Assembly (NCBI GenBank): GCA_015059105.1
Contig: SVBB01000009.1
Coordinates: forward strand, 252-64,251
Direction: 5' to 3'
DNA from: Erysipelotrichaceae bacterium
Lineage (GTDB): Bacteria > Bacillota_I > Bacilli_A > RFN20 > CAG-826
DNA length: 64,000 bases
A program made the position numbers and the translations under genes. Under the pieces are notes generated by a model, which worked only from the letters and a program-made list of their open reading frames with translations, ran no database searches and was not told the origin of the DNA. Of this stretch, positions 11,101 to 50,812 are shown piece after piece (the first letter of the stretch is position 1; each line of letters starts with the position of its first letter).

Positions 11101-11499
11101 TTCATTTGGCATTTCATGAGCGACCATATTTGTAAAGGAATCAATAGTTCCCAAGAAACATAAATCGATGTTTTTAAGTGCTTCCTGACATCGCTCCACG
11201 CTTTTTGTTGTCTTTGCTCCTAAGTCTTTATCAGACTTATCAGGAACATTCACACTTCTTCTAGATAATAATTCTTGGAAACGAGCGTAAAATTCATCAG
11301 CAGCCGCTTTTGTAAATGTAATCGTACATATCTTATCAACAGGGACGCCATTGCCTCCATCACCTTTTTCAATTAAGGCAACCATACGATTCACCAAAGA
11401 GGTTGTTTTACCACTTCCGGCAGAAGCTTCAACAAAAAGATTATGAGATAAGTCTTCAACAATTCTTTTTCTTGATAATTCATCAATATCTACTGGCAT
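8152..11499 (-). CDS. addA: AddA/RexA-type UvrD-family helicase with C-terminal PD-(D/E)xK nuclease
   Basis: Walker A EASAGSGKTT; UvrD-like motifs; C-terminal VIDLIYEDDSGYHIIDYKTNK. Start ATG at 11499 follows AAGAGGA. Confidence 0.85.
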   Translation of the reverse strand: MPVDIDELSRKRIVEDLSHNLFVEASAGSGKTTSLVNRMVALIEKGDGGNGVPVDKICTITFTKAAADEFYARFQELLSRRSVNVPDKSDKDLGAKTTKSVERCQEALKNIDLCFLGTIDSFTNMVAHEMPNEIGIPSDAVVIGKEEREAMVKMQYNLILADDAHPLHKSALLFNSSVGKAGDAFAAGVELLLSKRNSVVEYDKSLLTADDNYFEPERTAFFNLAKKFCGLGIDFTANKSKITSADIERNKALKDIENKYQLLNGKSVIDNIEKFKYFFAPFNLIGAKKLTTPIDNTNLVNDGTLEPEGKTFKLTADSAKIIDDFKGKIDEFLYAHYFYLVSSAVHDVNKILKEEGKFDYDDFLYAVVEAFKKSCATNKELVKHIFDRHSYFLLDESQDTNPIQTRLFFYLTGEKTTDDWKKVEPKEGSLFIVGDPKQSIYGFRDADVNAFLETKALFAAKGELLILTKNFRSRVSIRDWLNLSMDDILNRGSAPLPHNNIIIPPEDRAMQIEGVVGQNETLLDGEYKYLTDPANEPIEVAKFIYDLVNSKKYKIISKNPAFNDDSDPSIKPLIYRTIEYKDFLIVPRSKDVSGFISAFSEYKIPMVIEAEIPFDNSPSLYALSNLVQLLKAPRDRHLVQEVLCGDIYKFDDGDILTILASGYDLNISNIKDLQLSEKKYVDAIVELNKLYIATKGMSFSSTLTYLLNNKDLTLLKRVSSDFLEYTYFLIEKVRQQEENGLLSGVGQFADYLNTFISGYTEENRVLRFKDKVNRVKIANLHKVKGLQAPIVMLVHPKETTKAIRTFVDNSVDPRILHVDSLSMKDDKFPITIVATHRYDDATRKKWQEHDDAEKDRLEYVGATRPESVLIVAYPTKLDSDEYNPWGNIINHIGDNKIISFPDIAVPNNSRDISNYIDPTIKDDLHKKSIEYRSPSTLAKDDKVEVKRDNEDVVIDKETITEATLMGSMVHKLMECLASSRDGFDRFELVDSVVEEYNGNQYRDLLLKVLDTIYHGGFQQKNSSVNKDILKTLLEAKDVMCEVPFSYRDGDTVTYGVIDLIYEDDSGYHIIDYKTNKDDDVARLEHHYKSQLDDYIKAVKQLGIDADAHIYHIDIK

Positions 11500-11501
11500 A
11501 A

Positions 11502-14117
11502 TTACATCCTCTTCATACATACGTCGCGATAGAAACAACTACCACATACTTTTTTATTGGATTTACTTGGGAAACTCCCACTGTCATAACAATTTTTAAT
11601 TTCTTTAATAACACTATCCAAAGTTAAATAACATTCACCCATCTTCTGAGGGTCATGAGCGATAGATATCCTATCTCCAGTTCTTAAATAACGGAACTCA
11701 AATCCCACGACAGGAATCTTTCGTTTCTTTTCAACAAGATATGAATAAACAATACATTGAATTAATGTTCTTAAATCATTGATGCTGTGTTTAACTTTTC
11801 TACCAGTTTTATAATCGACGACATATCCTTCTCCATTACTATTCATCACTACTTTATCAGGGAAGCCATGGATTTTAATGCCGCTATCTTCGTATTCAGC
11901 GTATATTTCTTTCTCTCTTATATTTCGGGAAGTTTCTTCCATATCGTAAGCGTTTTTCATCATCTCTAAAAACTCTTTCTTTGTATTTATTTTTAGAGGA
12001 ATATTATCCGTATGATGAATAATGAAATAATCATCAAAACGATCACCAGAAATTTTTAAGAATTCATCTAATGATGTTTTGCTTTTATTTAATCCTTCCA
12101 GTAACGAATGGGCTAATGTGCCATAATCATTTGCCGGAATAAGTTCGAATATATCGACATCTTCAGGTTGTTCTACTTTTAATATTCTTGAAAGGTAAAA
12201 CATATATGGACATTGTACAAATATCTCAATATCGGATGCTGATAAAGCTTTGTTTAAAACTGTCAAAGGAACAGCAATTATTCTATTAGGATCAGGTGGG
12301 TTTGGCTTATCATAATCCACTTGTTTGTTATCTGTTACCGCACGTCCAATGTCAGCGATTGGCAAGAGATTTGTCATGAAAAACTCGACAGTTCTGAACT
12401 TATTTTTATTATTTTTAAATTCATCTTCGAAATTCTTGATAGTCTTACTAACGCCATTTTCTTTTTGATATGCTTCAAAAACAACACTTGATGCATTCTG
12501 TGTTTTAAGTGTCACAGAATTATAAGATGCATAAGATAAATGGATGGACGAACCTTGCTTGTTCGCTAAAGCAAGAAGGTTGAAGAAAGAGTTCTTGTTA
12601 TTTTCAATTGCGCGGTTAGAGGCATTGTTTACTCCGAAAGCTTCATAGTCTCTATCCAACAATATTGGGTCTTCTTTTCTTTTACCTGGGAAGTTATTTG
12701 AAGACAAGCCAACAACAAACAAATGCTTTCTTAATACCGATGACGCATTTGCGATAGAGGTGAAATATAATGTCCCTGGTTTTGGAGATCTTTTTCCAAC
12801 ATTTTGAAGGAATATATTTTTAACAATATCGGAATGAGGGATAGAGTATTTTCTTTCATAAGTTAATCCTTTGACGACCTTGTCTCTTGCGTTCTCATCA
12901 GCGGATTCATCGACGATATAACAATACTCGTTAATGAAGTTTAATAACCCCTTGTTTAAGACGTCTTTAAACGCGGTTACAAAAGGGATTTCTTTCACCC
13001 TTCTAGCAATATCTTCTTCATCTATTTTTTCTGCTGTATATCTATCTAACAAATCTAGATATTTTTTAAGTTTTTCTTCGTTGCTCTTCTCGTCAAAAGA
13101 TAATCTTAAATCCCCAACAGTAGTCACAATCGTGTCAAATGAAATTTGGTGATGATAATGGACTCCTTTATTAAGGTCATCAAAGGAATCAGGGATTCTG
13201 ATTTCTTCTTTAAATTTACCTATATTAAAGCATTCATCATAAATGACTTTTTTCAAATAATCGACGTGGTAATTATTGTCCATATAATCATTAACAATGG
13301 AAAATAATCTACCAGGGTGAGTTTCAATGATGTTATCTCCAACTCCTATTGTTAACGGAAACCCTAATAGGTCATGATAATTATTTAAGATGTTAGAGTA
13401 ATCTTTTATTTCGCTGGCAGCAATAAGGCATTGATCAAAGGGAAGATCATGCTTATAAATATAATCCAAGATATCTTCAATCTCATTGTCCTGTGAAAAT
13501 GATTTTGTGTATGAATCAATATGAAGAGGAACGCCTTCGTTAATTTTTGTTGGGACAATATCTCTACCACTTGCCTTGGCTAATAAAGCCATATCGAGTT
13601 TATAATCTAAAATTCTATCCCCTTCATATATAACAAAGTCGATATTTGGGAAAGAGGATATGTTTTCATATGCATATCTAATTGTTCCCACTTCATCAAT
13701 GAAGTTATTATCTTTTGAAGTTAAAGTTTTGATAAAAAGATCATAGAACTCAATAATTGCAGCATTCTTATTTTGGAATTCATCTTTTGGAAGCTTGTCT
13801 ATAATAACTTTCCTTTCGTCGTCTGGGATGCATCTACGTAAATCATTAATAGAATCGATTAAACCAAGAATGTCATTATAGGTAAGTTTTTCAAAATACG
13901 GTATCTTCTTCACATCATGATAAAGAAGTGCGGCAAGATCATCATTGGAGATAAACTTGCTTTTAATAACCTTTCCAGAAAGCATTAATAAATGTCTCGC
14001 TAGTTCAAGCGTTGACATATATCGCACATTAAAGGAAGTGTTCCCGAGGGCCGCTAATGATTTAAGTGTATCAACGTTTTTATATGTTGATGTTAAAACA
14101 ATCGTATGCTTAATCAT
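11502..14117 (-). CDS. addB: AddB/RexB-type nuclease subunit (short form, 871 aa) with Fe-S cysteines
   Basis: GYVVDYKTGRK nuclease motif. Cys cluster: CPYMFY ... CGSCFYRDVC. Confidence 0.75.
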   Translation of the reverse strand: MIKHTIVLTSTYKNVDTLKSLAALGNTSFNVRYMSTLELARHLLMLSGKVIKSKFISNDDLAALLYHDVKKIPYFEKLTYNDILGLIDSINDLRRCIPDDERKVIIDKLPKDEFQNKNAAIIEFYDLFIKTLTSKDNNFIDEVGTIRYAYENISSFPNIDFVIYEGDRILDYKLDMALLAKASGRDIVPTKINEGVPLHIDSYTKSFSQDNEIEDILDYIYKHDLPFDQCLIAASEIKDYSNILNNYHDLLGFPLTIGVGDNIIETHPGRLFSIVNDYMDNNYHVDYLKKVIYDECFNIGKFKEEIRIPDSFDDLNKGVHYHHQISFDTIVTTVGDLRLSFDEKSNEEKLKKYLDLLDRYTAEKIDEEDIARRVKEIPFVTAFKDVLNKGLLNFINEYCYIVDESADENARDKVVKGLTYERKYSIPHSDIVKNIFLQNVGKRSPKPGTLYFTSIANASSVLRKHLFVVGLSSNNFPGKRKEDPILLDRDYEAFGVNNASNRAIENNKNSFFNLLALANKQGSSIHLSYASYNSVTLKTQNASSVVFEAYQKENGVSKTIKNFEDEFKNNKNKFRTVEFFMTNLLPIADIGRAVTDNKQVDYDKPNPPDPNRIIAVPLTVLNKALSASDIEIFVQCPYMFYLSRILKVEQPEDVDIFELIPANDYGTLAHSLLEGLNKSKTSLDEFLKISGDRFDDYFIIHHTDNIPLKINTKKEFLEMMKNAYDMEETSRNIREKEIYAEYEDSGIKIHGFPDKVVMNSNGEGYVVDYKTGRKVKHSINDLRTLIQCIVYSYLVEKKRKIPVVGFEFRYLRTGDRISIAHDPQKMGECYLTLDSVIKEIKNCYDSGSFPSKSNKKVCGSCFYRDVCMKRM

Positions 14118-22815: not shown

Positions 22816-24159
22816 CTATTTTAAGGCAAAAAGCATGTACGAGGGTAAATTAATAAGATTGTCACCATAGCTTAGTGGTTTAGGTTTTACAATATATTTT
22901 TCTCCAACATTTTTGCCAAATTTCATTTTGAATTTGTTTAGCGACGATAAAGATGAAACCTTTTTCGATTTAATCTCTAGAGGCGTTGTCTTTCCATTTA
23001 AATTAATAAGAAAATCAATCTCGTAATTCTTATTTTTTTCATCTTCTTTGTCATTCCAGGAATAATAATATGTTTCAAAGCCGTTTGATGACAACGCTTG
23101 AGCGGTGTAATTTTCAAAAAGCATCCCTAAATTTAAACTCAATTTATCTAACACTATCTTTTGATAAATATCACGAGTGTCGTTTTTATTGCTTGCATAA
23201 ACCATAGAAACAAACAAACCAATATCACAAAAATATAACTTAAACATGGTTTCATCTTTTGTTAATGCAAATCCACCACTAGGATCATTACATTTAAAAA
23301 CAGGTATGACTATTTTTGACTCTTCAAGTTTGTTCAAAGTATTTTTAAACAAAACAGAGTCTGCTCTTTGATCAACCGAAGAGACAATAAATCTAGTTGA
23401 ATGATTGGATAACATATTTGGTATTTGCTTCCAAACCATATAACAAATAGTCCCATATTTATTGTCTATTTTTCTTAAGTCATCTTCATAAAGGTTGATA
23501 ATTCTCTTTTTTTCTTTTTCAGCATCGTAAAAATCATGATTAACCAAATACTCCAACAAAACTTTTGGCATACCTCCAAGAGCTAAATATAGTCTAAAAT
23601 TTCTCAGGAATGATTGATGATATTTTTGGTCAAATGGTTTCCTATTATTGAAGCATTCCTTAAGCAAAGCTGCTTCATGTTCTGCGCCAATAGCCCACAA
23701 GAATTCTTCATAGTCCATTGGATACATTTGAATGGTTTCTTCTTCTGAAGGAATTAAGATGTTTGAAGTGTTTTCTTTAATAGAAACAAGTGATCCAGTT
23801 TCAATATAATGATATCTACCATCAGCAACTAATCTTTTAATTGCCTGTCTTGCTTTTGGGCAGAATTGAATTTCATCAAAAATAATCAAACTGCCAACCG
23901 GCAAATGATGAATTCCTAGATCTAAAAATAATTTAGAGAAAAAATCATCCACACTAAGTAAATTATCAAAATTCTTTTTAAAGTCTTCTGACACTATCGA
24001 AAAATCTATTGTAAAAAAGTCTGGGTATTCATTTTTTCCCAATTCTTCAGCAACAGTTGTTTTGCCGATTCGTCTTGCCCCCTCAATAAGAAGAGCTGAA
24101 TTCCCATTTGATTCCTTTTTCCATTTCAACAAATCTTGATATATTTTTCTCTTAAACAT
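22816..24159 (-). CDS. AAA ATPase with C-terminal PD-(D/E)xK-like module (AAA_14/DUF4143-like), copy 1
   Basis: Walker A IEGARRIGKTT; Walker B IIFDEIQ; C-terminal EIDFLI...PLEIKSKK. Confidence 0.7.
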   Translation of the reverse strand: MFKRKIYQDLLKWKKESNGNSALLIEGARRIGKTTVAEELGKNEYPDFFTIDFSIVSEDFKKNFDNLLSVDDFFSKLFLDLGIHHLPVGSLIIFDEIQFCPKARQAIKRLVADGRYHYIETGSLVSIKENTSNILIPSEEETIQMYPMDYEEFLWAIGAEHEAALLKECFNNRKPFDQKYHQSFLRNFRLYLALGGMPKVLLEYLVNHDFYDAEKEKKRIINLYEDDLRKIDNKYGTICYMVWKQIPNMLSNHSTRFIVSSVDQRADSVLFKNTLNKLEESKIVIPVFKCNDPSGGFALTKDETMFKLYFCDIGLFVSMVYASNKNDTRDIYQKIVLDKLSLNLGMLFENYTAQALSSNGFETYYYSWNDKEDEKNKNYEIDFLINLNGKTTPLEIKSKKVSSLSSLNKFKMKFGKNVGEKYIVKPKPLSYGDNLINLPSYMLFALK

Positions 24160-28444: not shown

Positions 28445-29689
28445 TTAATTATGTTTCTTCTTGGAAAACTGTTTGTCCATTAATTGAGGCAGTAAATAAT
28501 TTTTGAGCTTATTTAATTCGTAATTCAATCTATGGCAGTAATTTAGCTTATAGATGAACGGCATGGACAATTTGTTAAACTTCATTAAAACATCTTGTGG
28601 AGGTATTAAAAGATTGACTGAATCTAAATCATCATTATTAACACCTTCTTGTGTCGCTCCGTGAGCAAGTACATCTTTGTTATATTCAAATAGTGAAGAA
28701 TTTATAAAACAATGGATATAACCTAAAGCATATTCTTTGCACTTTAAACCGCAAAAACCAGTTGATAATATGTAGCGATCAATAAACCAAGAATCTTTCT
28801 CTGTTAGAGTTAAATGCTTAATGCTTTTTTTGAGTTTTGCAAACCATACTGAGTTTTTAATAGGCTGCATATTTGCTCTGGTTTCCCTGTTCTCGTAGTC
28901 GATGTCTTCACCATCAAAAAACTCTGACCCAACAATATTTGCAGTCGGTAAATAATTTTTCACTCTAAACATATCTACACCCGGCTGGATAATTGAAACC
29001 AAATCATTATGTTGCAAAGTTTGATATTTCCAACCATCCGGGTATTTTCTTTTAATTTCGGTATTCTCGTTTAAATTGCCACCAGAAGTAAAATATGGCT
29101 TCCCATCTTCATTAGGGAAATCAAATTGGTAAAACCAAAACTCATACATTTGGCTTAATAGCATCTCATATTTTCTTATAAGTGTTCTAACATTAGCTAT
29201 CTTTTCATCGATGGGTGAAAGTGAATCACCAAAAAAAGCTTGCTCTTCATCATTAAATGAATCTATCTCAAAATCAGCAATTTGCGACGGAGCTAAATTC
29301 TTGATTGTAGATCCATGAGCAACTGTCAAACTATACTTCTTAAATTCTTCAGATTCTAAAATATATCTAACAAAATTTTTGTCGATTCCCTTTTTTAGAT
29401 TTAAGTATGCAATACTTTTGCCTAATGCAATTTTCTCACCGTGATAAAAACCAACATTTCCCAATGTTCCATTAATAGAGACAAACACAGTATTTTCTCC
29501 TAACGGACGCTTAATGCTTTCATATTCTTCTTTACTAATCCTTGGAGTATCAGGATCTAATTCAATTCTTCCGTTTCTAATATTGTTGCCATTAACAAAG
29601 AAGTATTCTCCATTATTATCGTATGTAGGAGTCCCGTGAATGCCATCGCCATAACTATCAAAATAATCTCCAAGTTTTATTTTTTCCAT
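28445..29689 (-). CDS. hsdS: Type I R-M specificity subunit
   Basis: Two-TRD architecture. Position and 13-nt overlap with hsdM. Confidence 0.8.
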   Translation of the reverse strand: MEKIKLGDYFDSYGDGIHGTPTYDNNGEYFFVNGNNIRNGRIELDPDTPRISKEEYESIKRPLGENTVFVSINGTLGNVGFYHGEKIALGKSIAYLNLKKGIDKNFVRYILESEEFKKYSLTVAHGSTIKNLAPSQIADFEIDSFNDEEQAFFGDSLSPIDEKIANVRTLIRKYEMLLSQMYEFWFYQFDFPNEDGKPYFTSGGNLNENTEIKRKYPDGWKYQTLQHNDLVSIIQPGVDMFRVKNYLPTANIVGSEFFDGEDIDYENRETRANMQPIKNSVWFAKLKKSIKHLTLTEKDSWFIDRYILSTGFCGLKCKEYALGYIHCFINSSLFEYNKDVLAHGATQEGVNNDDLDSVNLLIPPQDVLMKFNKLSMPFIYKLNYCHRLNYELNKLKNYLLPQLMDKQFSKKKHN

Positions 29690-31314
29690 TTGATTAATTC
29701 CTCTAAATTGGCGTTGATGGTTTCATTGAGTCCGTCAGACAGAGAATTTATTTCTGACAAGCCTTTTAATGACTCTTCAATTGATTTTTTGAAATTCTCA
29801 GGATCAATATATTCGTGTTTGACTCGAATGTTAAAATATTGCCCTGCTGCCAGCATTTTCTTTTTATTTAATTTATCGTGCGACACAAGAATCGAAAAAT
29901 CTTCAATGCTGTCTTTATTAACGAATGTGTTGACGATTAAGTCGATTTCTTCTTTTTTAAGACGTCTCTTTTTATTACCATTATCCTGATAGTCTTCGCC
30001 TAAATTTGATGCATCAATAAGAATAACTTCTTCTGCTGTTTTTGAAGCATCCAAAAATAGAACAGAGACGTTTGTGCCTGTGTTTGCAAAAACATTAGAT
30101 GGCATAGAAATGACACCATAAACTAACTTATCTTCAATAAGCTTTGATATTATTTTTCCCTCGACACCACTTGAAGCAGTTAAAAAACCAGTCGGGACGA
30201 CAATTGCGCCCTTTCCTATACCAGGTTTTAAAGAATTCACGACATGTTGGATGAAACATGTGTATATAGCCATCTTAGGTTTTTTGGGTTCGATTTTTTT
30301 GGGAATATTTGGGACACCTGCCCAAAACCTAACTGTCTGAGCTGAAATGCTAGCATGGGTGTCTACAAAATCCAATTTAAATGGGGGGTTAGAAACTATA
30401 TAGTCGAATTGTCTAAGTTTTGTTTTATCATCAGACTTGTGATATGGAGACACCAATGTATCTCCTTGAATTGCGTGATCGAGAGATGAAACTAAGCCAT
30501 TTAAAATTAAGTTTAGTTTTAACATTTTGTTGCTCTTTTGAGATATATCTTGAGAAAAAATGGTACACTTATCTTCTCCGATTTGATGCGCAAGGGCCAT
30601 TAAAAGTGTCCCAGTTCCGGCTGAAGGATCGTAAATCTCAATATTATGAAGATTTTTTGAATCACCAACTAACAATCTAGCCATAATGGTTGCAATAAAA
30701 TGAGGAGTATAGTATTCGGCATACTTACTACCACCCGCATTGTTGTAATCTTTTATAACATATTCAAAAATTCCGGCGAAGAAATCATAGTGTTCATCAA
30801 ACGCTTCTTCAAAAGAAAAGTTTGCTAGTTTATCAACCAAAGCTCTAGCAAAAGGAGCCCTATCTGAATCGTCGTCAATAAAATTAGTTAATTTTTCAAA
30901 TAATGGTATTCTCGTATTTTGAGCGGTTTGCGTTGAAAAAATATCTATGTTCTTTTCTGCAATATCAAGCATTGCACTATCAAAAATTAAATCAAAATCG
31001 CCTTTGCTTTGTTGATTCCAAAGATTTGCAATAAGGTGCTCAGGATTAAGTCTAGGAATATCTGGTGATAATTTATCAAAAATAGAAAGTCTTTCATCTT
31101 CACTCATATTTTTGTAAGCAAGTTCCCATTTTTCAGCATTTTGTAACTTAGAAGAGAGTTTTTTGACTTCAAATCCAAATTTATCATTCAAAAACTTATA
31201 AAGAAACACTTGGGTAATAATCTTGTACTCGTTACCGTCGTTGCTTATTCCGTACGTTTGACATGTTTGCTTAAGCGAATCAATTAGTGCGATTGTTTTT
31301 TGTCTAATATCCAT
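29677..31314 (-). CDS. hsdM: Type I R-M N6-adenine DNA methyltransferase
   Basis: YYTPHFIATIM, DPSAGTGTLL, IVSNPPFKLDF. Confidence 0.9.
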   Translation of the reverse strand: MDIRQKTIALIDSLKQTCQTYGISNDGNEYKIITQVFLYKFLNDKFGFEVKKLSSKLQNAEKWELAYKNMSEDERLSIFDKLSPDIPRLNPEHLIANLWNQQSKGDFDLIFDSAMLDIAEKNIDIFSTQTAQNTRIPLFEKLTNFIDDDSDRAPFARALVDKLANFSFEEAFDEHYDFFAGIFEYVIKDYNNAGGSKYAEYYTPHFIATIMARLLVGDSKNLHNIEIYDPSAGTGTLLMALAHQIGEDKCTIFSQDISQKSNKMLKLNLILNGLVSSLDHAIQGDTLVSPYHKSDDKTKLRQFDYIVSNPPFKLDFVDTHASISAQTVRFWAGVPNIPKKIEPKKPKMAIYTCFIQHVVNSLKPGIGKGAIVVPTGFLTASSGVEGKIISKLIEDKLVYGVISMPSNVFANTGTNVSVLFLDASKTAEEVILIDASNLGEDYQDNGNKKRRLKKEEIDLIVNTFVNKDSIEDFSILVSHDKLNKKKMLAAGQYFNIRVKHEYIDPENFKKSIEESLKGLSEINSLSDGLNETINANLEELIKWKK

Positions 31315-31324
31315 TTTTAAACCT

Positions 31325-34300
31325 CTAAGCGTAAATGCTTCTATACTGATTTAAGTACTGAGCACTTATCCTGCTCTGTATAAATACTTTATCTTCTCGT
31401 GTGCTTTGCAAGTTTAATTTATCTAATCCTGTATTTATTTGAACCATGACAGTTTGCTCAAAATAAACATCCTTTTTAAGAATATCGTTTCTATCATAAA
31501 CTTTGTGGTCAATTTCTTCTTTGATTGTTAGCAAAGCGTTTCTTATATCATCTTCAAATTGAGAAATAATCATTCCCTTGCCTTTAGCAGATCTCACAAT
31601 GTTTTCTTCTCTGATTCTCTTGTGGACCCTGACAAACTTTGCATCACCATTATATTTTTTTCTAAGAGCTTCGTTCTTCTTTTGCATTTCATGCAATTTA
31701 TCAATAACTTCATCAAGCTCTTTTGAGTACTGTTCATATTCTTCGTGATTGTTAACAACAAAACCGTGTTCTTTAAATCTGGCAATGAACGCTTCCCTAA
31801 GCGTGATGAACTCTGGGTCCTCAGGATCAATGTTCTCGGTAAAGCCTTGAACAGCTTTCCTCCACTTCTGGTCTAATTCAACACCACCAGAAACGATTTT
31901 CATTTCCTCATCAGGCATCTTGTTAAACTTAAACGTGATGTCTTTCATAGCCTCATTGATGAGGGTTGTTGTTTCGTCATCATGTTCAAGAGCTTCTTTC
32001 TGATTCATGATATCAATGGCGTGTTGCACTTCTGAAATAAGAGCCGGAAGTTTACCAATATCAAATGAAGCAACTTTTTCTTTTAGTTCTTCATCACCAA
32101 AGGTGCGGACCATATTGAAGCAGTCTTTCATTGAAACTAAAGCTTTCTTGAGTTTGAGAAGCACTTCTTTCTCATCTATGTCTTGGATTTCCTGGCTAAA
32201 CACCTCAGCGTTATCTGTTGTATATTCAAACAAAGTTTGTTTTGCTTCTTTGAGTTGATTAATGATCTCTTCAGGATCTTCTAAAACCTGAGTAAATGTA
32301 TCGGTTTCGTTTCCTTCACCCACTTCATCAGGGTTATTAAATTTATTAAGCTCTTTTAAATAAGCATCATTTGTTTCGTCGAAATTTTTCTTGATATCAG
32401 CAAAGTCGATGACATAGCCATATCTATTATCTTTATAAGGTCTATTAACTCTGGTGATTGCTTGTAAAAGACCATGATCACGTAATTTGCGGCCAAAATA
32501 GAGTCGTTTGAGTCTCGGAGCGTCAAAACCTGTGAGCAGCATGTTAAAAACAATCAAAATATCTATTGTCATATTCTTCTTGAAGTCTTTAACAATTTGT
32601 TTTCTGGTTTCTTTATCATCACTATCATAGAGGATCAAACCTGCTTTGAAATGGCTCTGGAAAGATGGAGCATTTGCATTAAGCTCATTTTGAATTTCGT
32701 CAAAGTAAGTAAAGAGTTTTCTTGCTTGCTCACTCGTTTCACAAATAATCATTCCGCCTAAAGTATCATCGCCATGAAGCATTCTAAACTCTTTTAAATC
32801 TTTAATAATGTATCTTAAGAGCTCTTTAACATATGTTTCATGCTCGATGATTTGACTCATTTGCAAGTCTTTTTTCTGCACCAGCTTTTCAAGCTGTTCG
32901 TAAATTTGAGACAATTTTTCTTTGTATGTTTTTTCAATTGGCTCTCTAATAATCTTCAAAGTATAACCGTCTTGAATAGAACGATCGTAATAATAGGTAT
33001 GATAGTAATTGCCAAAAACCTTCCAAGAAGCTCTTTCTGCTTTAAGCAAAGGTGTCCCGGTTAAAGCAATCTTGATTGAATTTGGATCTGCTTCAAATAA
33101 GTTTGCCAAGAACGAACCTGCCGGATTATATCCTCTGTGTGCTTCATCAATAATGAAGATTCTTTGAAGGTTCGTAGCGTAAGGAGGCAACACCACTTTC
33201 TCATGGTCTTCCTCGAATCTCTGGATGTTAACAACAGTAACTTCGTTTTTGCCTTTATCGCCTTCTAACGACTGATTGGTTTTAAATTGTTCCATCAATT
33301 CTTTTCTTGTGCTTGCGGTTTTAACAACGAGTCCTCTGGCTGTAAATTCTTGCATCGCTTGTTCAAGTAAATCAATTCTATCTACGATGAAATAGAACTT
33401 AGCGACTTTTTCTTTCTTTGAGAAGTAGTCAGTTAGGACATAGTTTAAGTGATAGGCTAAAGCGGTCTTTCCACTACCTTGTGTATGCCAAATGACGCCA
33501 GAATTAATTCCTTGGTCTAATTTTTCTCTAATTGCAAAAGAAGCGAACATTTGTTGATAACGCATGATGTGTTTCTCGTCTGTAATGGTAATTGTGCCAT
33601 CATCTTCTTCTTTTTCGTCATGAACATATGCGATTCCATATTTTAATAAGAAAAGCAATCTCTCAGGAGAGCACATAGAAGTAATGACTCTATTGGTTGG
33701 AGAATAAGTATCTAAATTAGTTTGATACTCAGGAGAAGTATGGATGACCTGACAGTTGAAATCAGAAAGTATCTTCTTCTCCACTATTGGATCGATTGGC
33801 TTATATGGGAAGCTTTGGTTATAAGGAGCTACTGCTAAATGAGTAGGATTTTCTTCTCTAAAAACACTGAATCTTGCATTCTTTCTAGCTCCGGTGCAAT
33901 AGAAAACACCTTGAATAGGGACTATTCCACCACAGGCATCATATTCCATGTTGTTGGAGAATATCATTAATTGAGTAATATTGATAAACCTTCTAAACTT
34001 CTTATTAGGAAAGCGAACATCATTCATTCTTTTGCTTTCAGCAATCATGCCGCCTTTGTTGTTTGGTTTTTTAACTTCAAAAAAAGCTAAAGGAAGGCCA
34101 TTAACAAACAAAGTAATGTCAGGTCTAAATTCATCCTCATCACGTTTACAGGTAAATTCGGCTGTGCAGTGATAAGTGTTGTTAGATGGATTATCAAAAT
34201 CAATTAACTTAATTGGAGAAATGGAGATAAGTCTTTTATAAAAAGATTTGCCTAAATCATCATTATCAAGCTCTAAATCAATGTCTTTTAATAGCTGAGC

Positions 34301-34495
34301 AAACTCTCCTTCGTGTCCGGGATTAAGGGCACAAAAACGCTCTTTAAACACATCAATTAAAATATTTGATTTAGGATCATAAATAGAATCGGCGGATTCT
34401 TCTGATATTTTGCCAAAATAGGTATATCCAATTCTCGTCAAGTGAACTAGAGCTGGCATTTGAACTCTAGTAGCTTCATTAAAATATTTAGGCAT
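31325..34495 (-). CDS. hsdR: Type I restriction endonuclease/translocase subunit
   Basis: WHTQGSGKT, IIDEAHRG, LLTGFDAP, QAITRVNR. The likely start is MPKYFNE, after GGAGAAAATTC. Confidence 0.9.
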   Translation of the reverse strand: MPKYFNEATRVQMPALVHLTRIGYTYFGKISEESADSIYDPKSNILIDVFKERFCALNPGHEGEFAQLLKDIDLELDNDDLGKSFYKRLISISPIKLIDFDNPSNNTYHCTAEFTCKRDEDEFRPDITLFVNGLPLAFFEVKKPNNKGGMIAESKRMNDVRFPNKKFRRFINITQLMIFSNNMEYDACGGIVPIQGVFYCTGARKNARFSVFREENPTHLAVAPYNQSFPYKPIDPIVEKKILSDFNCQVIHTSPEYQTNLDTYSPTNRVITSMCSPERLLFLLKYGIAYVHDEKEEDDGTITITDEKHIMRYQQMFASFAIREKLDQGINSGVIWHTQGSGKTALAYHLNYVLTDYFSKKEKVAKFYFIVDRIDLLEQAMQEFTARGLVVKTASTRKELMEQFKTNQSLEGDKGKNEVTVVNIQRFEEDHEKVVLPPYATNLQRIFIIDEAHRGYNPAGSFLANLFEADPNSIKIALTGTPLLKAERASWKVFGNYYHTYYYDRSIQDGYTLKIIREPIEKTYKEKLSQIYEQLEKLVQKKDLQMSQIIEHETYVKELLRYIIKDLKEFRMLHGDDTLGGMIICETSEQARKLFTYFDEIQNELNANAPSFQSHFKAGLILYDSDDKETRKQIVKDFKKNMTIDILIVFNMLLTGFDAPRLKRLYFGRKLRDHGLLQAITRVNRPYKDNRYGYVIDFADIKKNFDETNDAYLKELNKFNNPDEVGEGNETDTFTQVLEDPEEIINQLKEAKQTLFEYTTDNAEVFSQEIQDIDEKEVLLKLKKALVSMKDCFNMVRTFGDEELKEKVASFDIGKLPALISEVQHAIDIMNQKEALEHDDETTTLINEAMKDITFKFNKMPDEEMKIVSGGVELDQKWRKAVQGFTENIDPEDPEFITLREAFIARFKEHGFVVNNHEEYEQYSKELDEVIDKLHEMQKKNEALRKKYNGDAKFVRVHKRIREENIVRSAKGKGMIISQFEDDIRNALLTIKEEIDHKVYDRNDILKKDVYFEQTVMVQINTGLDKLNLQSTREDKVFIQSRISAQYLNQYRSIYA

Positions 34496-34931
34496 GAATT
34501 TTCTCCACAATATCAATTACGAACAATAATCAAAAAGATTATATCTCTAAATTGCGCTCTTTACTATGAAAACAGGAAACGCAAAGGTCTATTGCCCTAT
34601 TGATTTCGCGATCTTTTCGCGTGAAACCCACGCCGACGTCCAATTATATAGCGGTAGAGATATTTGACCGCACCTACCTTTTCGCTCCAAAGAAAACATG
34701 AAAACATGAATTTTCTGTGCCGTGTATTCTGGGATGGGGCGCATCGGTACTTTCAAATAGTCGTTTTTTCAATAGGGGATGGTGGTCATTAGGAATCAAT
34801 GAGAGGTTGGAGAAGTCATTTTATAACTTTTTTGAAACTAAAAATAAAGAAAAGGTTAGGTGTGTTAGTTCATTAACCGCTACTTCCTATATAGATAGAC
34901 CTTATTATAATCTTCCTAATACGAGTTGTAG

Positions 34932-36185
34932 TTATAAGCCTAACCCCATCACCTTGCTCTCAACATCTCTATAGGATACATATCCTTGTTGACACATTAA
35001 ATCTGCAAACCTTTTTAAGCTATCAATATGCGGTTTTAAATACTTAATTGTTTTTCTTTCATATTTTCTTAATAGAGAATATGTTTTTCTTTCTATTGAT
35101 GCTCTCTTTCTTGGAGTTTCTAAATGCCACTGATTGCTGTTCTCTGCCTCTGTAATGTGGTACCCCAACCCTTTAATCGCACTTCTTTCTAATAATCTAC
35201 GGCAAAAGTCATGTGCTTTTTCTATGTCACTATAAGAACCATAATCATGATTGCCGAATATCATTTTTTCTGCTACATAACCGCCTAAGGCAATCATGAT
35301 TTGTTGTTCTCTTTTTTCTAAAGTCATATATTTCTCTATCACTTCTTCTGTTTCTGTGGTTCCTCCAGATGAAGTGAATTTTGTTCTATAGAATGCCCAG
35401 TTATCTTTGAAGATGCTGGCTAGTAAAGCATGTCCTCCTTCATGTACCGCTACTCGATAGTTATTGATAGTGACAGGAACCTTACCAATATCGTTATGTC
35501 TCACTCTTTCATATGATGTTTCAATATCTTCTTCAGTCACGACTTTATTCTTACATCTTAGATAGACATCATTAACAATGGCTTTTAATTCTGCCCCTGA
35601 TGCACCTTGGCAGTGTTTACTCACAAAATCAAAATTGATATGAGAGACATCAACATCTAAATTAGAGAATACACCTTTGAGTATTTCCGCTCTTGATTTT
35701 CTATCAGGCGTAGATATCTCAATCTTCTTATCAAATCTACCAGGTCTTTTAAGTGGGTCACCGATGCCACGCATTTCATTCGCGGTTGCTAAAACTAAAA
35801 TAGAACCCTTTTGGTCTATACCATCTAATTCTTGTTGCAATGTTCTCTGCTCTTTAGAATCCTTTGGAACGAGAAGTTCTAATTCGTCGATTACGACGAT
35901 TGCAAATTTATCATTCTTTGCTTTTTCAAACACTCCTTGGATTTCTAATGGGGCATTTGCATTCCTACCCTCAATAACATATTTAGGACAATCAAAGTTA
36001 TTGATGAATTCGCGAACAAATAATGTTTTCCCTACCCCAGGTTCTCCATATAACAATATTCCCTTTGGTAAGGCAACATTTGGGTCATTAATAACACTTT
36101 CATCTTCATACCATGACTTGATGAGATTTAGTTCATTTTTGACTTCTTGATAACCATACACATTTTCAAATGTTAATTCTTTCAT
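34932..36185 (-). CDS. soluble FtsH-like AAA+ ATPase fused to an M41 Zn-metalloprotease (no TM segments)
   Basis: GILLYGEPGVGKT, VVIDELE, PGRFDKKIE, HEGGHALLA, GGYVAEKMIFG. Start ATG at 36185 follows AAGAGGAAAT. Confidence 0.8.
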   Translation of the reverse strand: MKELTFENVYGYQEVKNELNLIKSWYEDESVINDPNVALPKGILLYGEPGVGKTLFVREFINNFDCPKYVIEGRNANAPLEIQGVFEKAKNDKFAIVVIDELELLVPKDSKEQRTLQQELDGIDQKGSILVLATANEMRGIGDPLKRPGRFDKKIEISTPDRKSRAEILKGVFSNLDVDVSHINFDFVSKHCQGASGAELKAIVNDVYLRCKNKVVTEEDIETSYERVRHNDIGKVPVTINNYRVAVHEGGHALLASIFKDNWAFYRTKFTSSGGTTETEEVIEKYMTLEKREQQIMIALGGYVAEKMIFGNHDYGSYSDIEKAHDFCRRLLERSAIKGLGYHITEAENSNQWHLETPRKRASIERKTYSLLRKYERKTIKYLKPHIDSLKRFADLMCQQGYVSYRDVESKVMGLGL

Positions 36186-36211
36186 ATTTCCTCTTTCTAT
36201 CAATAAAGAAA

Positions 36212-36234
36212 GCTCCCATCGTTATGATAGGAGC
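36212..36234 (-). terminator. hairpin GCTCCTATC-ataac-GATGGGAGC followed by TTTCTTTATT, about 10 nt before the FtsH-like RBS (attenuator-like)
   Basis: 9 bp on the minus strand, including one G-U. On the plus strand the same position is a C-A mismatch. Confidence 0.5.
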
Positions 36235-36399
36235 ATATAAAGAAGGAAATGTTCCCATCATACAAGCTTTAGCACCTTATCAATATGATAGGTTGCTGGT
36301 GGATCACAGGGCTTGTCCCTAACCACTCTCTTTATGGATGACTTAATTATATATAGGTAATAATATTTTTATTTCATTTATAAGTGAAATGTACATAAA

Positions 36400-36960
36400 T
36401 ATGTTTTTTAATAACCGGACATTCGGTGTCCTCACACTATGTGTTGACATCAACATATACTATAAGCACATTGGAACCCAGTGAATGTCATCTTGCTGAT
36501 GGCTGGGGCCCAACCAAAATAGGAAAATAACATGGGATACTGTGTTATGAGTACAAGACCTATATGGTACCCGGAAGTAAAAAACCGCTTTGGTTGGTGG
36601 CGCAGTACGCTACTCGATGTAAACAACTACTAGGACAGGCACGACAAGAGGCTCTGCAGCAATGCATCCCACGATATGATGTTAACGTGAGAAACTAACA
36701 TCTACGTCCTCAAAGGAAGTGCTCACCTTGACGGATGGTAACATCCTATAACTGACTTAGTAGGTACAAGTAGGGGAACGGTGGATTCATCATTTAGTAG
36801 ATCAATCCATTGCTGAAGCTCCCTGAACGTTGGAAGAGTATTTATCTCTTCCCTAGGATACGGTAGAAATACCCATTGCGGAAGTGTTAGGGTCGCTCCC
36901 TAGTGCTCAGCCCGCCGTGCTAGTGTGTGAATAACAGATTGTAGTAAATACTGTATGACG
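36400..36960 (+). ncRNA. unclassified large structured RNA candidate (strand tentative)
   Basis: ORF-free and G+C-enriched. Many helices, including GNRA-capped stems: TGCA-GCAA-TGCA 36655-66, GGATG-GTAA-CATCC 36733-46, GGTA-GAAA-TACC 36862-73. Long-range helix 36510-18/36589-97. Confidence 0.45.
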
Positions 36961-37209
36961 AAGGTCGCCAATGTCTTTTTTTATATAAAAATAAAAACAT
37001 CCATTAAGGATGTCCATTGCAGATATCCCGAAGGCTTCTGCAAATGCATTGATAACGGTAATGCGGTCCGTGCCGTCTTTTTCTATCCGACGCAAATGCC
37101 TTGTGTCGATATACATACGGCTTGCTAAGTATTCCTGTGTCCAGTGCCTACTTAGTCTTAGGGTTCTAATCGTATCGCCGATTAGACGCGAATCAATAGT
37201 GTTGCTCAT
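36907..37209 (-). CDS. XRE-family HTH protein (the C-terminal 30 aa run into the structured segment)
   Basis: IGDTIRTLRLSRHWTQEYLASRMYIDTRHLRRIEKDG. RBS AAGGAGG. Confidence 0.7.
   Translation of the reverse strand: MSNTIDSRLIGDTIRTLRLSRHWTQEYLASRMYIDTRHLRRIEKDGTDRITVINAFAEAFGISAMDILNGCFYFYIKKDIGDLRHTVFTTICYSHTSTAG
36980..37013 (-). terminator. ACATCC-ttaat-GGATGT followed by TTTTTATTTTTAT, located inside the XRE ORF
   Basis: Canonical intrinsic-terminator shape on the minus strand. Confidence 0.5.
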
Positions 37210-37285
37210 AGCTACCTCCTTATACTGAATGATCTTTTAGGATGTCTATTTGATTCGCTCGGTAGCTTTTCTATGAGCGGGTATT

Positions 37286-37313
37286 ATTCTATATTATATA
37301 TATAATATGTCAA
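37286..37313 (-). promoter_or_regulatory. sigma-70-type promoter TTGACA-16-TAGAAT for the XRE gene
   Basis: Hexamers at 37313-37308 and 37291-37286 (minus strand). Confidence 0.5.
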
Positions 37314-37322
37314 TAGGTTTTA

Positions 37323-38033
37323 TTAATAATTGGTATTATCACGAACCGTATTTGCTATTGATTCCATATCTTGAAGTAAGCCATCATTTTTTGAAATCTC
37401 AAGAACAATTTCATCAAATGCTTTAATCAACGGAAACAACTCTTCAAAAATGTCCAGCTTTACCAAGAAAACCCATTTTTCAAACGGATATCGTTTCTCT
37501 TCCTTCTCTTTCTCAGAAATTGGTGCTTCGTCATAGAAATAAATCGCGCTAATATCCCTTGCTTGTTCAGGGAAGAAATGAATATTACCATTGCCTGAGT
37601 GGCACAAAGCATTCCTAAGATGCTTAAAGAATCCATAAACATTAATGTGGTTACTGTCATAGCAGTTGCTTCTAATATCAATTAAGTTTTTAATTCTTTC
37701 TTTACACTCTCTATAGTGACCAGGATCAGCTTCTTCCAATATTTTATCTTTGAACCTATGCTCGCTAATTGAACTTCTTTTTAAATATTCAACTGGTACA
37801 ACAATCGTGCTAAACATTGAATTAATTAACTGAGTTCCATCAAAGAAGTCATAGATAGGTAATCCCATATCATGTAAACCATATTCTTCATCCACTCTAT
37901 TTAAGTGATTGTTTCGAAGTTCTTCTACGTTTAAATTGCCTTCGTTAATACCATTGTTCACTTCGTTTATAAGTTTGTTATTTAATCTAGTTTGCAAGAT
38001 TAAATCAGAAATCATCGCTCTATATTGTCCCAT
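37323..38033 (-). CDS. HEPN-domain protein (putative RNase)
   Basis: Rx4H motif in FFKHLRNALCHSGNG. Confidence 0.55.
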   Translation of the reverse strand: MGQYRAMISDLILQTRLNNKLINEVNNGINEGNLNVEELRNNHLNRVDEEYGLHDMGLPIYDFFDGTQLINSMFSTIVVPVEYLKRSSISEHRFKDKILEEADPGHYRECKERIKNLIDIRSNCYDSNHINVYGFFKHLRNALCHSGNGNIHFFPEQARDISAIYFYDEAPISEKEKEEKRYPFEKWVFLVKLDIFEELFPLIKAFDEIVLEISKNDGLLQDMESIANTVRDNTNY

Positions 38034-44872: not shown

Positions 44873-46195
44873 CTATAAAAACATAATTAAATAAATAGGT
44901 AGAGTTACAAGATTATTTTCTTTTTTTACTATGTTCTTATTCCCAAAAACAAATCCAAAAGGAATTTTATAATTACCATTAGGGTCCACCAGTTTAGGAA
45001 TTGCTCTAAAATTCGTCTGATCTTTTCCTGACTTTATTTCAATAGGCAAAATAGAAAGATTGTTGTAATCATTGATTAAGAAATCAACCTCACCAACTTT
45101 TTTACTATCAAAATAATATAGTTCATGACCGTGAGCGATCAATTCCATTGCCGCTGCAGTTTCATACGCAGAGCCTAAATTAACTCCTTTATCTTGGTTT
45201 AAAACCGCATCAATGCTATTTTTGTATAACACATTAGTTAATATGCCAACATCGTTATAATAAAGCTTAATAAGATTCTTGCTACTAGATTCCGTTAAAG
45301 GAAATACAGGATTGCTAACTGCTTTGACTGCATGAGCAACACCCGAAGACACTAGGTAATCAAATTCATCTTCGTATTTATTAAGGGTGTCTTTTTTATT
45401 ATCATCAATTTTATTTGCTTGAATTCTTTTAACGTTGTTCCCCATTCGGGAAGCCATCATTTCATAAATTCTAGTTATTTTTAATTTGTGCTCTAAATCA
45501 TATTGCGAGCAGTCGTCTTTATAATAAGTGTACGTTAATGAATGTACTCCTCTCATTTCCATGACATTTTTATTGGCCACAAATTGTTTTACTGCATCAG
45601 GAAGGCCGCCAGAAAGAAGATACTCTTTAAATCTCGAAAGGAGAACCGAATGAACAACATCAGTGATGGGTTCTAATTTATCAAAGCATTTTTTGACGTA
45701 TTCAATCACATCCTTGCCAACATGACTTGCCCATAAAAACTCCTCAAAATCCATAGGAAACATTTTGACTTCTTTAATTGAACCCATTGGAATAAATGTA
45801 TGCTTAAGCGTAACACCAAGAAGAGAACCACTAACTATATAAGAATACTTTTTCTCTTTATTAAGTGGTTTTAACATCGATATCAAATGCGGGTATACCT
45901 GGATTTCATCTAAAAAGATAATCGTGTCTTCTCTTGTGCCTAGTTTGTCGCCAAAAAGTGATGATACCACAAGATAGAACTTATCGGCGGTATTAACTTT
46001 AGCGTGTTCAAAATTTCTTTCGCCATCAAAATCATCTTTGAGGTTTATTTCAATGTAGTTTTTGAATTTTGCTTTAGCTAGTTTATTGATGATATATGTT
46101 TTACCAATTTGTCTAGCGCCCTCAATAATGAGTATTGTTTCTTTGTCACTATCCAAATATTCATTGATTGTTGTTTCAATTTTTCTTTTAAACAT
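44873..46195 (-). CDS. AAA ATPase with PD-(D/E)xK-like module (AAA_14/DUF4143-like), copy 2
   Basis: IEGARQIGKTY, IFLDEIQ, EVDFLI...PIEIKSGK. Confidence 0.7.
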   Translation of the reverse strand: MFKRKIETTINEYLDSDKETILIIEGARQIGKTYIINKLAKAKFKNYIEINLKDDFDGERNFEHAKVNTADKFYLVVSSLFGDKLGTREDTIIFLDEIQVYPHLISMLKPLNKEKKYSYIVSGSLLGVTLKHTFIPMGSIKEVKMFPMDFEEFLWASHVGKDVIEYVKKCFDKLEPITDVVHSVLLSRFKEYLLSGGLPDAVKQFVANKNVMEMRGVHSLTYTYYKDDCSQYDLEHKLKITRIYEMMASRMGNNVKRIQANKIDDNKKDTLNKYEDEFDYLVSSGVAHAVKAVSNPVFPLTESSSKNLIKLYYNDVGILTNVLYKNSIDAVLNQDKGVNLGSAYETAAAMELIAHGHELYYFDSKKVGEVDFLINDYNNLSILPIEIKSGKDQTNFRAIPKLVDPNGNYKIPFGFVFGNKNIVKKENNLVTLPIYLIMFL

Positions 46196-49469: not shown

Positions 49470-50762
49470 TTACAATCCCAACATACTGATTGGAACAATG
49501 TAGACATCCCCTTCTTTTTTAGAAGACCCATGACTTGTAAGTATCATTTTGAAAGCAGGCATTTTTAAGCCATTTTCTTTCATCTTCTTTTCGAATTTAT
49601 TTAAAGAAGAAATTCCATCTTTAATATTTTTATCACTCGCAATTTTAATTTCAATTGCACCATATTCTCCGTTGTTAAGTTTTAAGATTGCATCTACTTC
49701 TAAACCATTGCTATCTCTATAATGCTTTAATTCTCCATTAAAAGAATCAGCATATATTGATAAATCTCTAACTGCCATATCTTCAAAAAAGAAACCAAAA
49801 GATTTCAAATCATTTAATAAGTCAGCAGGTGTGATACCTAATGCAGATGTTGCAATAGAAGTATCAACAAAATGATGTGTTGGGGTAGTTCTTACAGCAA
49901 CACTAGATCTTAAATTAAGATTCCAGGCAGGCATATCATAGATAATGAAAAGATCTTCTAGTGTTTTTTTATAAGTTAAAAATGTATCATCATCTAATTT
50001 GCTTCTCTCTCCTGATTCTAATATATCCTTAATCATTAATGTGTTTTTAGCTTCAGTAGATATATTTCTTGCAAAAGACTTAAGTATTAGTTTTAAAAGC
50101 TCAATATTTTTATTTTTTAAGAACTCAGCAAATTCATCATTCTCATCTTCAATAGTAAATAAGCCTTCATAGTAGTTGTTAGTAACATCAAGAGCATATT
50201 CTTTTTCGCTTTTCACCGCGATAGGCCAACCACCTCTACAAATAATATGAGCAATATCCATTAATGAAACAGGATTATGTTGACCATAGGTAGATGTAAA
50301 TTTATAGTTCTTATCAAATAGACCCAATAAAGAAATAACCCCTGTAGATTCTTTTGATTCTAATAAAGAGAATGGTTTTAATTTTAAAGATGTTATTCTT
50401 CCGGCAGCAGAATTTTGAATTTTAGATGAATCGACTGGTGTGGTGCTTCCAGTTAATATATATTTTCCAAATTGATAATCTTTATCTAAATCATCTTTTA
50501 TGATATTCCATATTTCGGGAGCTTTTTGCCATTCATCAACTAAATGAGGGTTGTCTCCTTTTAAAGTTGAATAAGGATCGGCGTTAGCAATTTCAATATC
50601 GTTAGTGGTCTTCAACGTTGTTACTGATTTTGCAAACTCTTCGCATAAAGTGGATTTGCCACAAAACTTAGGGCCACTAACAACCACACATCCAGATGAT
50701 TTAAGTTTCCTTTTTAATGAATTCTCTGCAAGACGGGGAATATAATCTTTTATTTTTGCCAT
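49470..50762 (-). CDS. AAA ATPase with PD-(D/E)xK-like module (divergent), copy 3
   Basis: VSGPKFCGKST, HLVDEWQ, EVDAIL...AIEIKIAS. The likely start is MAKIKDY. Confidence 0.65.
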   Translation of the reverse strand: MAKIKDYIPRLAENSLKRKLKSSGCVVVSGPKFCGKSTLCEEFAKSVTTLKTTNDIEIANADPYSTLKGDNPHLVDEWQKAPEIWNIIKDDLDKDYQFGKYILTGSTTPVDSSKIQNSAAGRITSLKLKPFSLLESKESTGVISLLGLFDKNYKFTSTYGQHNPVSLMDIAHIICRGGWPIAVKSEKEYALDVTNNYYEGLFTIEDENDEFAEFLKNKNIELLKLILKSFARNISTEAKNTLMIKDILESGERSKLDDDTFLTYKKTLEDLFIIYDMPAWNLNLRSSVAVRTTPTHHFVDTSIATSALGITPADLLNDLKSFGFFFEDMAVRDLSIYADSFNGELKHYRDSNGLEVDAILKLNNGEYGAIEIKIASDKNIKDGISSLNKFEKKMKENGLKMPAFKMILTSHGSSKKEGDVYIVPISMLGL

Positions 50763-50812
50763 AACAAACAACCTTATATATATTTTATATAGACACAAAT
50801 AAAAATCAATCG

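Follow-up and report, generated by a model that had tools for sequence, protein, structure and literature searches.

[quoted passage not shown] 2017, PMC5737381), is one of a small number of natural RNAs for which unaided assembly into a closed cage is known. Its members fold without protein into flat monomers, and kissing loops and A-minor contacts join these into closed homo-octameric (D4) cages about 28 nm across. The cages are stable at nanomolar concentrations and have been proposed to serve in encapsulation, while the RNA itself can match 16S rRNA in abundance, is non-essential and has no known function (PMC12286853, PMC12515178, PMC12990946). Cryo-EM structures have been determined for the env-120, E. 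faecalis and L. salivarius ROOLs (PMC12286853, PMC12990946), and the variable linker of the RNA is a disordered loop inside the cage (PMC12286853). The stoichiometry differs between ROOL relatives, the L. salivarius ROOL being a hexamer (PMC12990946). GOLLD, likewise a large ornate RNA of phages and bacteria without a known function, forms RNA-only cages as well and has similar genomic habits, being found near tRNAs, in prophages and also elsewhere. However, the two RNAs are unrelated in sequence and fold.

We analyzed a stretch of 64,000 nt of DNA from an Erysipelotrichaceae bacterium (hereafter, the window), all of which was scanned against Rfam 15. Two matches exceeded the gathering score, namely a SAM-I riboswitch and ROOL (RF03087) (Table 1). 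The ROOL match at 36453-36987, which is present on the plus strand only, is 535 nt long, scores 206.1 bits in cmscan, where the gathering score is 99.1 (E = 4.4e-45), and covers model positions 1-574 of 574. Its length falls within the ROOL size of roughly 500-660 nt, and the other ROOL matches in the loci that we fetched span 516-611 nt. It is practically certain that this part of the plus strand is a full-length ROOL RNA. A sequence-only reading of the same DNA had placed a large, ornate structured RNA resembling the ROOL/GOLLD/OLE class at 36400-36960 and had left its class unassigned. The resemblance was judged correctly, and the class could in fact be assigned (206 bits versus 99.1): the cmscan search which that reading had proposed settled the identity as ROOL. 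Compared with the Rfam boundaries of 36453-36987, the segment had been started about 53 nt too early and ended 27 nt too soon.

Table 1. Features of the ROOL locus and of its surroundings, in positions of the 64,000-nt window.
Feature	Position	Strand	Evidence or remark
AddAB	8152-14117		
Type I R-M operon	28445-34516		
AAA+/peptidase-M41 gene			behind the SAM riboswitch
SAM-I riboswitch	36340-36213	-	Rfam 15, above gathering score
DNA palindrome GGACATTCGGTGTCC (GGACA-N5-TGTCC)	36417-36431	.	21 nt before the Rfam ROOL start
-10-like box TATACT	36456-36461	+	about 24 nt after the palindrome; cross-locus alignment only
ROOL RNA (RF03087)	36453-36987	+	cmscan
P1, closing helix of the whole RNA	36464-74 with 36968-78	+	10/11 pairs canonical in the window copy
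P2 hairpin, CCCAG/CTGGG stacked on CATC/GATG	36477-36507	+	100% and 88-98% paired, compensatory changes
5' multi-stem domain closed by CCAACC/GGTTGG	36509-36599	+	closing helix 94% paired
Central domain closed by a 12-bp helix (36627-38 with 36752-63)	36627-36763	+	92.7% paired, 10 covarying pairs
Helix GGGGAA/CTCCCT enclosing the variable linker	36773-78/36819-24	+	covaries GC/CG/AU
3' domain: hairpin 36832-52, GAAA hairpin 36862-73, hairpin 36883-36907	36832-36927	+	alignment, pairs
Terminal hairpin UGAC-GAAG-GUCG, directly before the P1 3' strand	36956-36967	+	100% paired, 4/4 pairs covary
P1 3' strand running into the seven-T run (36976-82)	36968-36982	+	T-run after P1 kept in relatives
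XRE-family HTH gene, convergent with ROOL	36907-37209	-	100-codon ORF, HTH_3 PF01381, E 3.5e-6
Hairpin and T-run, terminator-like	36985-37015	-	end of the XRE core, abuts the ROOL 3' end; kept in relatives

A decayed protein gene, or a member of another large RNA class (GOLLD, OLE, raiA, HEARO, group I/II intron, RNase P or tmRNA), has next to no chance of being the correct identification. The sole observation in its favor is the G+C content of the segment, which at 44.1% versus 33.3% in the window lies at the 99.6th percentile among 535-nt windows. The hand counts of the sequence-only reading (32/60, 29/60 and 21/60) were exact, and its description of the segment as ORF-free holds apart from the tail of the XRE ORF, which spans 36907-36987 on the minus strand. 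In the six-frame ORF list, there is no ORF of at least 60 aa in 36400-36906, where only chance ORFs of 31-58 aa occur, and none of at least 30 aa between 36699 and 36906. At E <= 1, a permissive Rfam scan of 36150-37350 gave no family beyond ROOL and the SAM riboswitch, none of the models of the classes named above matched at the gathering score or at E <= 1, and ARAGORN detected neither a tRNA nor a tmRNA anywhere in the window. Furthermore, the substitutions among relatives have the form of covariation between paired columns and are not codon-like. A blastn comparison of the segment with phage and plasmid collections returned no match.

Unfortunately, the folding energy turned out to be uninformative. 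The MFE of the segment was not distinctive when compared with that of shuffled sequences (z = -1.3 for the plus strand and z = -2.1 for the minus strand), and it discriminated neither the plus strand nor a structure. Hence, the description of the segment as densely helical cannot rest on thermodynamics, and the case for more structure than expected by chance is made by the covariance-model match together with covariation.

Relatives were found in public collections with a pattern derived from the most conserved positions of the 3' domain, which gave 52 genome loci and at least 120 viral contigs. All 20 of the 20 loci tested with cmscan contained a ROOL (111-315 bits), and the family was confirmed in 30 related loci overall (111-316 bits). 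The MAGs with the nearest ROOLs are from gut and rumen and carry the labels Bacilli, Erysipelotrichaceae and Anaeroplasmatales. Two MAFFT alignments, both built with no structural information, were used in the covariation analysis. The first (A1) comprises 19 full-length ROOLs, the Rfam consensus structure being projected onto it via the window sequence; the second (A3) comprises the 14 ROOLs of the window copy's own subclade, with P1 corrected as described below. The projected consensus has 138 pairs, 110 of which are canonical in the window copy (112 of 132 after the P1 correction). In A1, 67.5% of the cells are paired versus 51.1% in column shuffles, and none of the 500 shuffles reached the observed value. 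The covariation score of A1 is 0.471, compared with 0.188 for shuffles and 0.12-0.27 when the partners were slid by 1-3 columns, and 110 pairs show changes on both sides. The subclade alignment gave 79.7% paired cells versus about 40% in the slid controls, 77 double-change pairs and a covariation score of 0.431 versus 0.190 for shuffles and at most 0.134 for the slid controls. A search of the 19 ROOLs for pseudoknots, of which the family has three, looked for non-nested covarying runs and produced only 3-bp candidates at the noise level.

The covariation also shows how the RNA is closed. P1 emerged independently as the top covarying run, with 92% of its cells paired over the 19 ROOLs and 3-5 pair types per position. 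Its register as given by covariation in this subclade is one nt off the cmscan alignment, and it was corrected accordingly. The closing helix envisaged by the sequence-only reading, which paired 36433-39 with 36921-27, has its 5' arm outside the RNA and is superseded by P1. Inside P1, the closing helix of the 5' domain and the hairpin at 36528-36547 show 7-9 covarying pairs; the hairpin is 88-91% paired and carries the invariant GGGAUAC loop, in which GAT is invariant. The inner hairpins of the central domain (GCAA at 36655-66, an apical hairpin at 36678-36702 and GUAA at 36733-46) are 93-100% paired in A3. The linker at about 36779-36806 varies in length and is unalignable between relatives, and it is short at about 28-40 nt. 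On the other hand, two Rfam helices (around 36616-25 with 36922-35) are essentially unpaired in the subclade alignment and are probably non-canonical motifs.

Conservation is uneven along the RNA. The window copy and 18 other ROOLs have 44 invariant columns in common, among them GAT of the GGGAUAC loop, T and A of UAUAAC, and G-T-G-C-T and T-C-A of GGUnGCUCC/GCUCAG. The 3' domain is the most conserved block of the family, with G440, T441, G443, C444 and T445 as well as T455, C456 and A457 invariant. Its hairpin at 36883-36907 has a near-invariant loop, U(C/A)GCU, which is followed by GCUCAG. This loop is a candidate for a symmetric kissing loop and may be equivalent to L18/L15.

Most of the structural detail given by the sequence-only reading is recovered in this model. 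The complementary sequences that it quoted are all present where it placed them, and six of its stems and all three of its GNRA loops map onto supported ROOL helices. CCCAG..CTGGG (36477-507) and CCAACC/GGTTGG (36510/36597) are ROOL helices by paired cells and covariation, as are ATAACA..TGTTAT (36528-47), GATGTTA/TAACATC (36678-702) and GGAAGAG/CTCTTCC (36832-52), and the hairpins with GCAA (36659), GTAA (36738) and GAAA (36866) tetraloops are ROOL hairpins. The pair 36773-36824 is G-U in 19 of 19 sequences of A1 and in 14 of 14 sequences of A3. Such universally conserved G-U pairs identify the plus strand as the RNA strand, and the plus-strand polarity favored by the sequence-only reading holds. 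Two other proposals are not supported. The hairpin at 36900-23 has 57% of its cells paired, which is near the shuffle background of roughly 51%. The internal duplication is not kept in relatives and is partly specific to the window: its first CCATTGC lies in the non-conserved linker, and its two CUCCCU strands belong to different helices.

The window copy has the same multi-junction structure closed by P1 as the known ROOLs, with the variable linker in the same place, and it shares with them the GGGAUAC loop, UAUAAC, CUGAA, GGU(A/C)GCUCC, GCUCAG and the terminal CGAAGG hairpin. It differs from them in being compact, at 535 nt versus an average of 581 nt (the env-120 construct has 659 nt), with a linker of about 28-40 nt versus 51 nt in env-120 and with shortened peripheral helices. 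The setting of the RNA is different, too. Prophages and/or tRNA arrays, which are typical of ROOLs but do not define them, are absent here, there is no nearby tRNA, and domain searches found no phage structural genes in the 64-kb window; non-prophage locations are on record in the ROOL literature, too. Such a setting, together with the reduced length and a score of 206 bits where relatives reach up to 316, could point to a relic, a phage-borne ROOL that was left behind in a chromosome and is decaying there without a function. We consider a relic very improbable. The match extends over the full model, and the palindrome in the promoter region and the partner gene described below are conserved across loci at 50-70% identity. 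The helices of the subclade are kept by compensatory changes (the 79.7% paired cells and 77 double-change pairs of A3), which means that the chromosomal copies are under structural selection.

The ends of the RNA can be predicted. Its 5' terminus probably falls within about 36464-36468 and not at the Rfam start, and its 3' end is probably in or just past the U-tract at 36976-36982; judging from the sequence, the seven-T run is probably the site of termination. The -10-like box of the window is replaced in relatives by TATAAT, TAAACT or TAGTAT, which in most loci lie 21-24 nt after the palindrome, and it predicts a transcription start near 36468. A start at exactly this position would remove the outer three pairs of P1. 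The hexamer TTGACA at 36444-49 is kept in the closest subgroup. However, it lies only 6 nt before TATACT and fits no standard promoter geometry. A generic sigma-70 scan found no plus-strand promoter.

The palindrome upstream of the RNA had been listed by the sequence-only reading as an RNA stem, GGACA/TGTCC, but it lies outside of ROOL and is a DNA palindrome. In all 12 of the 12 aligned loci, its arms are invariant, its 5-nt spacer is variable and its distance to ROOL is fixed at 21 nt, and it is followed by TCAC(A/G). About 1.4 exact copies of the palindrome would be expected in the 1.43 Mb of ROOL-bearing loci; 10 are present, 9 of them at this position. Invariant arms around a variable spacer suggest an operator bound by a protein and not a helix of the RNA. 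GGACA-N5-TGTCC is a candidate XRE operator in the ROOL promoter.

The XRE gene is convergent with ROOL and overlaps its 3' end. Its conserved core has about 72 aa (about 36994-37209) and ends with DILNGxxF, whereas the last ~28 codons (36907-36990), which are antisense to the ROOL 3' end, are non-conserved. The XRE tails diverge, with lengths of 72-131 aa, and are alike only where they read antisense through ROOL, which makes the overlap of the two an incidental read-through. The minus-strand hairpin at 36985-37015, whose sequence also encodes DILNG, is probably the terminator of the XRE gene, where it would prevent antisense transcription from running into ROOL. Since the XRE ORF and ROOL share 81 nt in the window, with similar overlaps in L177 and L183, the locus might be thought to serve mainly in antisense or cis control of XRE by the 3' end of the RNA. 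This is very improbable: the overlap is not kept, with gaps of 109-119 nt in L176 and L180 and of about 300 nt in L051, the conserved XRE core stops before ROOL with a terminator-like site of the minus strand at the boundary, and a 535-nt structure with at least 77 covarying pairs far exceeds the needs of an antisense RNA.

The association of the XRE gene with ROOL is confined to the subclade of the window copy. XRE homologues with 43-64% identity adjoin ROOL only there and do not adjoin it at the other ~150 loci. Those of the closest relatives have 43-56% identity. They are convergent at the ROOL 3' end in L001, L002, L033, L036, L023, L052, L027 and L051, and in L053 as well as in L017, which is without the palindrome, they lie just upstream of ROOL and on its strand. 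The reverse test, in which the XRE core was searched against a database of 5.8 billion proteins, gave only 15 clusters, and the four clusters that were examined correspond to 8 loci. A convergent ROOL (123-209 bits) was present in 8 of these 8 loci, and the palindrome was found at the same 21-nt distance in 6 of the 6 loci that extend across the ROOL 5' flank. The gene neighbors of the trio vary from locus to locus and include rimP-nusA, EF-G, tex, alanine racemase, rfb-type, Phd/PIN, AbiEii, TnsA-like and HEPN genes. As the flanking genes differ between loci, the palindrome, ROOL and XRE behave as one unit.

Cro/CI-type regulators and controller (C) proteins are the described XRE regulators that resemble this arrangement. 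Like them, the protein encoded here is a single-domain HTH, of about 72 aa, and a 15-bp inverted repeat abuts the -35 region of a neighboring promoter. However, where those regulators control a lysis/lysogeny or restriction gene, the putative target here is a structured non-coding RNA. On balance we favor the idea that the XRE protein regulates ROOL, its binding to the palindrome being suggested by their co-occurrence. The palindrome could instead be the site of another factor, or an RNA or DNA hairpin acting as a leader, a processing site or an upstream terminator, next to which XRE would be a co-inherited neighbor such as a Cro/CI-like remnant or an antitoxin-like gene. XRE genes are indeed common in mobile DNA, the window contains a single copy of the palindrome, the promoter of the XRE gene itself has none, and L017 has XRE and ROOL without it. 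Nevertheless, we regard such an arrangement as unlikely, if by no means negligible. Invariant arms with a free spacer are characteristic of protein recognition, whereas an RNA stem would covary, and no T-run follows the palindrome. Its fixed distance of 21 nt to ROOL and of 21-24 nt to the -10-like box, its co-occurrence with a narrow XRE clade wherever both flanks are visible, and the change of flanking genes around the three elements, which must therefore travel together, all speak for an operator.

The surroundings of the locus were analyzed as well. Besides the genes in Table 1, the window encodes an IS110 transposase, a HEPN protein of the pEK499_p136 family, a DUF2130 protein, an ADP-ribosylglycohydrolase, an FtsK/SspH-like ATPase, three AAA_14/DUF4143 paralogues (PADLOC PDC-S01), and Fic, AbiEii and BspA-type LRR proteins. 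The ROOL locus is situated in a variable, defence-rich region of the chromosome. Two of the neighbors were considered as further partners of ROOL and rejected. An AAA+/M41 gene is found beside ROOL in L022, too, but the closest homologue of the window gene, in L175 (67% identity), keeps the SAM riboswitch and is without ROOL, which leaves a link between AAA+/M41 and ROOL unsupported; the AAA+/M41 protein had no match in viral contigs. The HEPN gene is common only to L001, L002 and L051 and is not a member of the core module.

All in all, a compact ROOL, probably under the control of an adjacent XRE gene and a palindrome in a module of ~1.2 kb, is very likely the best explanation of the locus. 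The RNA would be transcribed from a promoter with a weak -35 element and a -10 box at about 36456-61, starting near 36464-36468, and transcription would end at the U-tract after P1. The XRE protein, with its core of 72 aa, would bind GGACA-N5-TGTCC, whose center lies about 44 nt before the predicted start, and would either activate or repress the promoter. Palindrome, ROOL and XRE would form a self-contained module of ~1.2 kb, residing in differing chromosomal neighborhoods of gut and rumen Bacillota-like genomes and not in a prophage tRNA array. By analogy with the known ROOLs, this copy may also assemble into an RNA cage. If a role is to be named, the likeliest is that of an inducible, self-assembling cage or scaffold in conflicts between mobile elements, phages and the host or in stress, and one may speculate that it would sequester or display a macromolecule.

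Going one step further, we tentatively propose, at slightly less than even odds, that this ROOL subclade has moved out of the tRNA arrays of phages and now spreads as a minimal chromosomal operator-ROOL-XRE cassette of ~1.2 kb, in which a dedicated 72-aa XRE protein would gate ROOL transcription via GGACA-N5-TGTCC. The recurrent placement of the cassette by type I R-M, HEPN, AbiEii and PIN/Phd genes hints at a role in conflicts with phages or mobile elements. A conflict or defence role for the present locus is suggested only by its neighborhood and is a possibility that we rate as rather doubtful. The subclade differs from the known ROOLs in that it carries an apparently dedicated XRE gene and the upstream palindrome.

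The large structured RNA at this locus belongs to a known class, and one more ROOL is an everyday finding, since the family is recognized by standard Rfam annotation. The operator-ROOL-XRE module, on the other hand, is apparently undescribed; the literature that we searched contained no mention of ROOL together with an XRE regulator. As a conserved partner protein and a palindrome accompany the RNA in ordinary chromosomal settings, the question of what ROOL does becomes experimentally approachable without a prophage background. If the proposal is true, the operator-ROOL-XRE cassette would give a first means of access to the regulation of ROOL, and knowing what triggers the XRE switch would tell when an RNA cage is needed by the cell.

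The AAA+ ATPase/peptidase-M41 gene of the window lies directly behind a SAM-I riboswitch and its terminator-like hairpin, and it is not a gene of methionine or SAM metabolism. The pairing of riboswitch and AAA+/M41 gene recurs outside the window, in the metagenome locus L175, where a riboswitch of 48.9 bits is followed by a 227-aa ORF and then by an AAA+/M41 gene 67% identical to that of the window. There, the gene stands beside an ADP-ribosylglycohydrolase fragment, and the locus is without the large RNA ROOL. Hence, the link between ROOL and the AAA+/M41 gene is not general. A second ROOL-AAA+/M41 adjacency is found at L022, but its layout is unlike that of the window and the two AAA+/M41 proteins are 24% identical.

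Features of the window and of compared loci (L-numbers)
Feature	Location	Strand	Details
SAM-I riboswitch	window 36213-36340	-	55.6 bits vs gathering score 44.4
Terminator-like hairpin of the riboswitch	window 36234-36212	-	
AAA+ ATPase/peptidase-M41 gene	window 34932-36185	-	cytosolic, FtsH-like; weak PADLOC IetA matches
TTGACA, perfect	window 36444-36449		cross-locus conservation
ORF-free spacer, 415 nt	window 34517-34931		between hsdR and AAA+/M41 gene
Three paralogous AAA_14/DUF4143 ATPases	window 22816-24159, 44873-46195, 49470-50798	-	
HEPN protein	window 37323-38033	-	pEK499_p136 family
Two different full-length ROOL genes in tandem	L013 2969-3487, 3501-4077	-	229.5 and 263.4 bits
Two Rfam 'cow-rumen-1' RNA copies	L183 160-220, 492-552	+	71 and 69 bits
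ROOL, then same-strand AAA+/peptidase-M41 gene, farther on group II intron domain	L022 1-352, 493-1809, 3920-3985		

The TTGACA ahead of ROOL is kept in the six closest loci (the window, L051, L176, L177, L180 and L183). Only 6 nt separate it from the conserved TATACT-like box, a spacing that no standard sigma-70 promoter has. The TTGACA might represent either an additional, second promoter element or a third GGACA-like half-site. The tandem ROOL genes of L013, from an uncultured Bacilli MAG, are 13 nt apart. In the metagenome contig L183, the XRE-ROOL module has both 'cow-rumen-1' copies a short way upstream of it.

Immediately upstream of the XRE gene, the window carries the HEPN gene. Homologues occupy the position immediately upstream at L001 and L002 (70% identity) and an upstream position at L051 (34% identity, with one ORF between), and the gene is absent from the remaining module loci. 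The cassette formed by the GGACA-N5-TGTCC palindrome, ROOL and the XRE gene may have the HEPN protein as an accessory partner.

The three AAA_14/DUF4143 paralogues, one of which was tested and matched PDC-S01 (E 5e-148), a candidate defence family of PADLOC, are intermixed with BspA-type LRR proteins, Fic, AbiEii and an FtsK/SspH-like ATPase; together, these genes constitute a dense defence or variable island. The AAA+/M41 gene itself adjoins a type I R-M operon, which is SAM-dependent. In the spacer on the hsdR side of this gene, G+C rises locally to 0.435 (34600-34799), and an Rfam search of the spacer gave no credible match, the best being AsxR (20.9 bits, E = 1). Among the papers searched, none connects SAM riboswitches with defence. 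We speculate that the AAA+/M41 gene would be turned on when SAM drops, for example through the action of a phage SAM-degrading enzyme.
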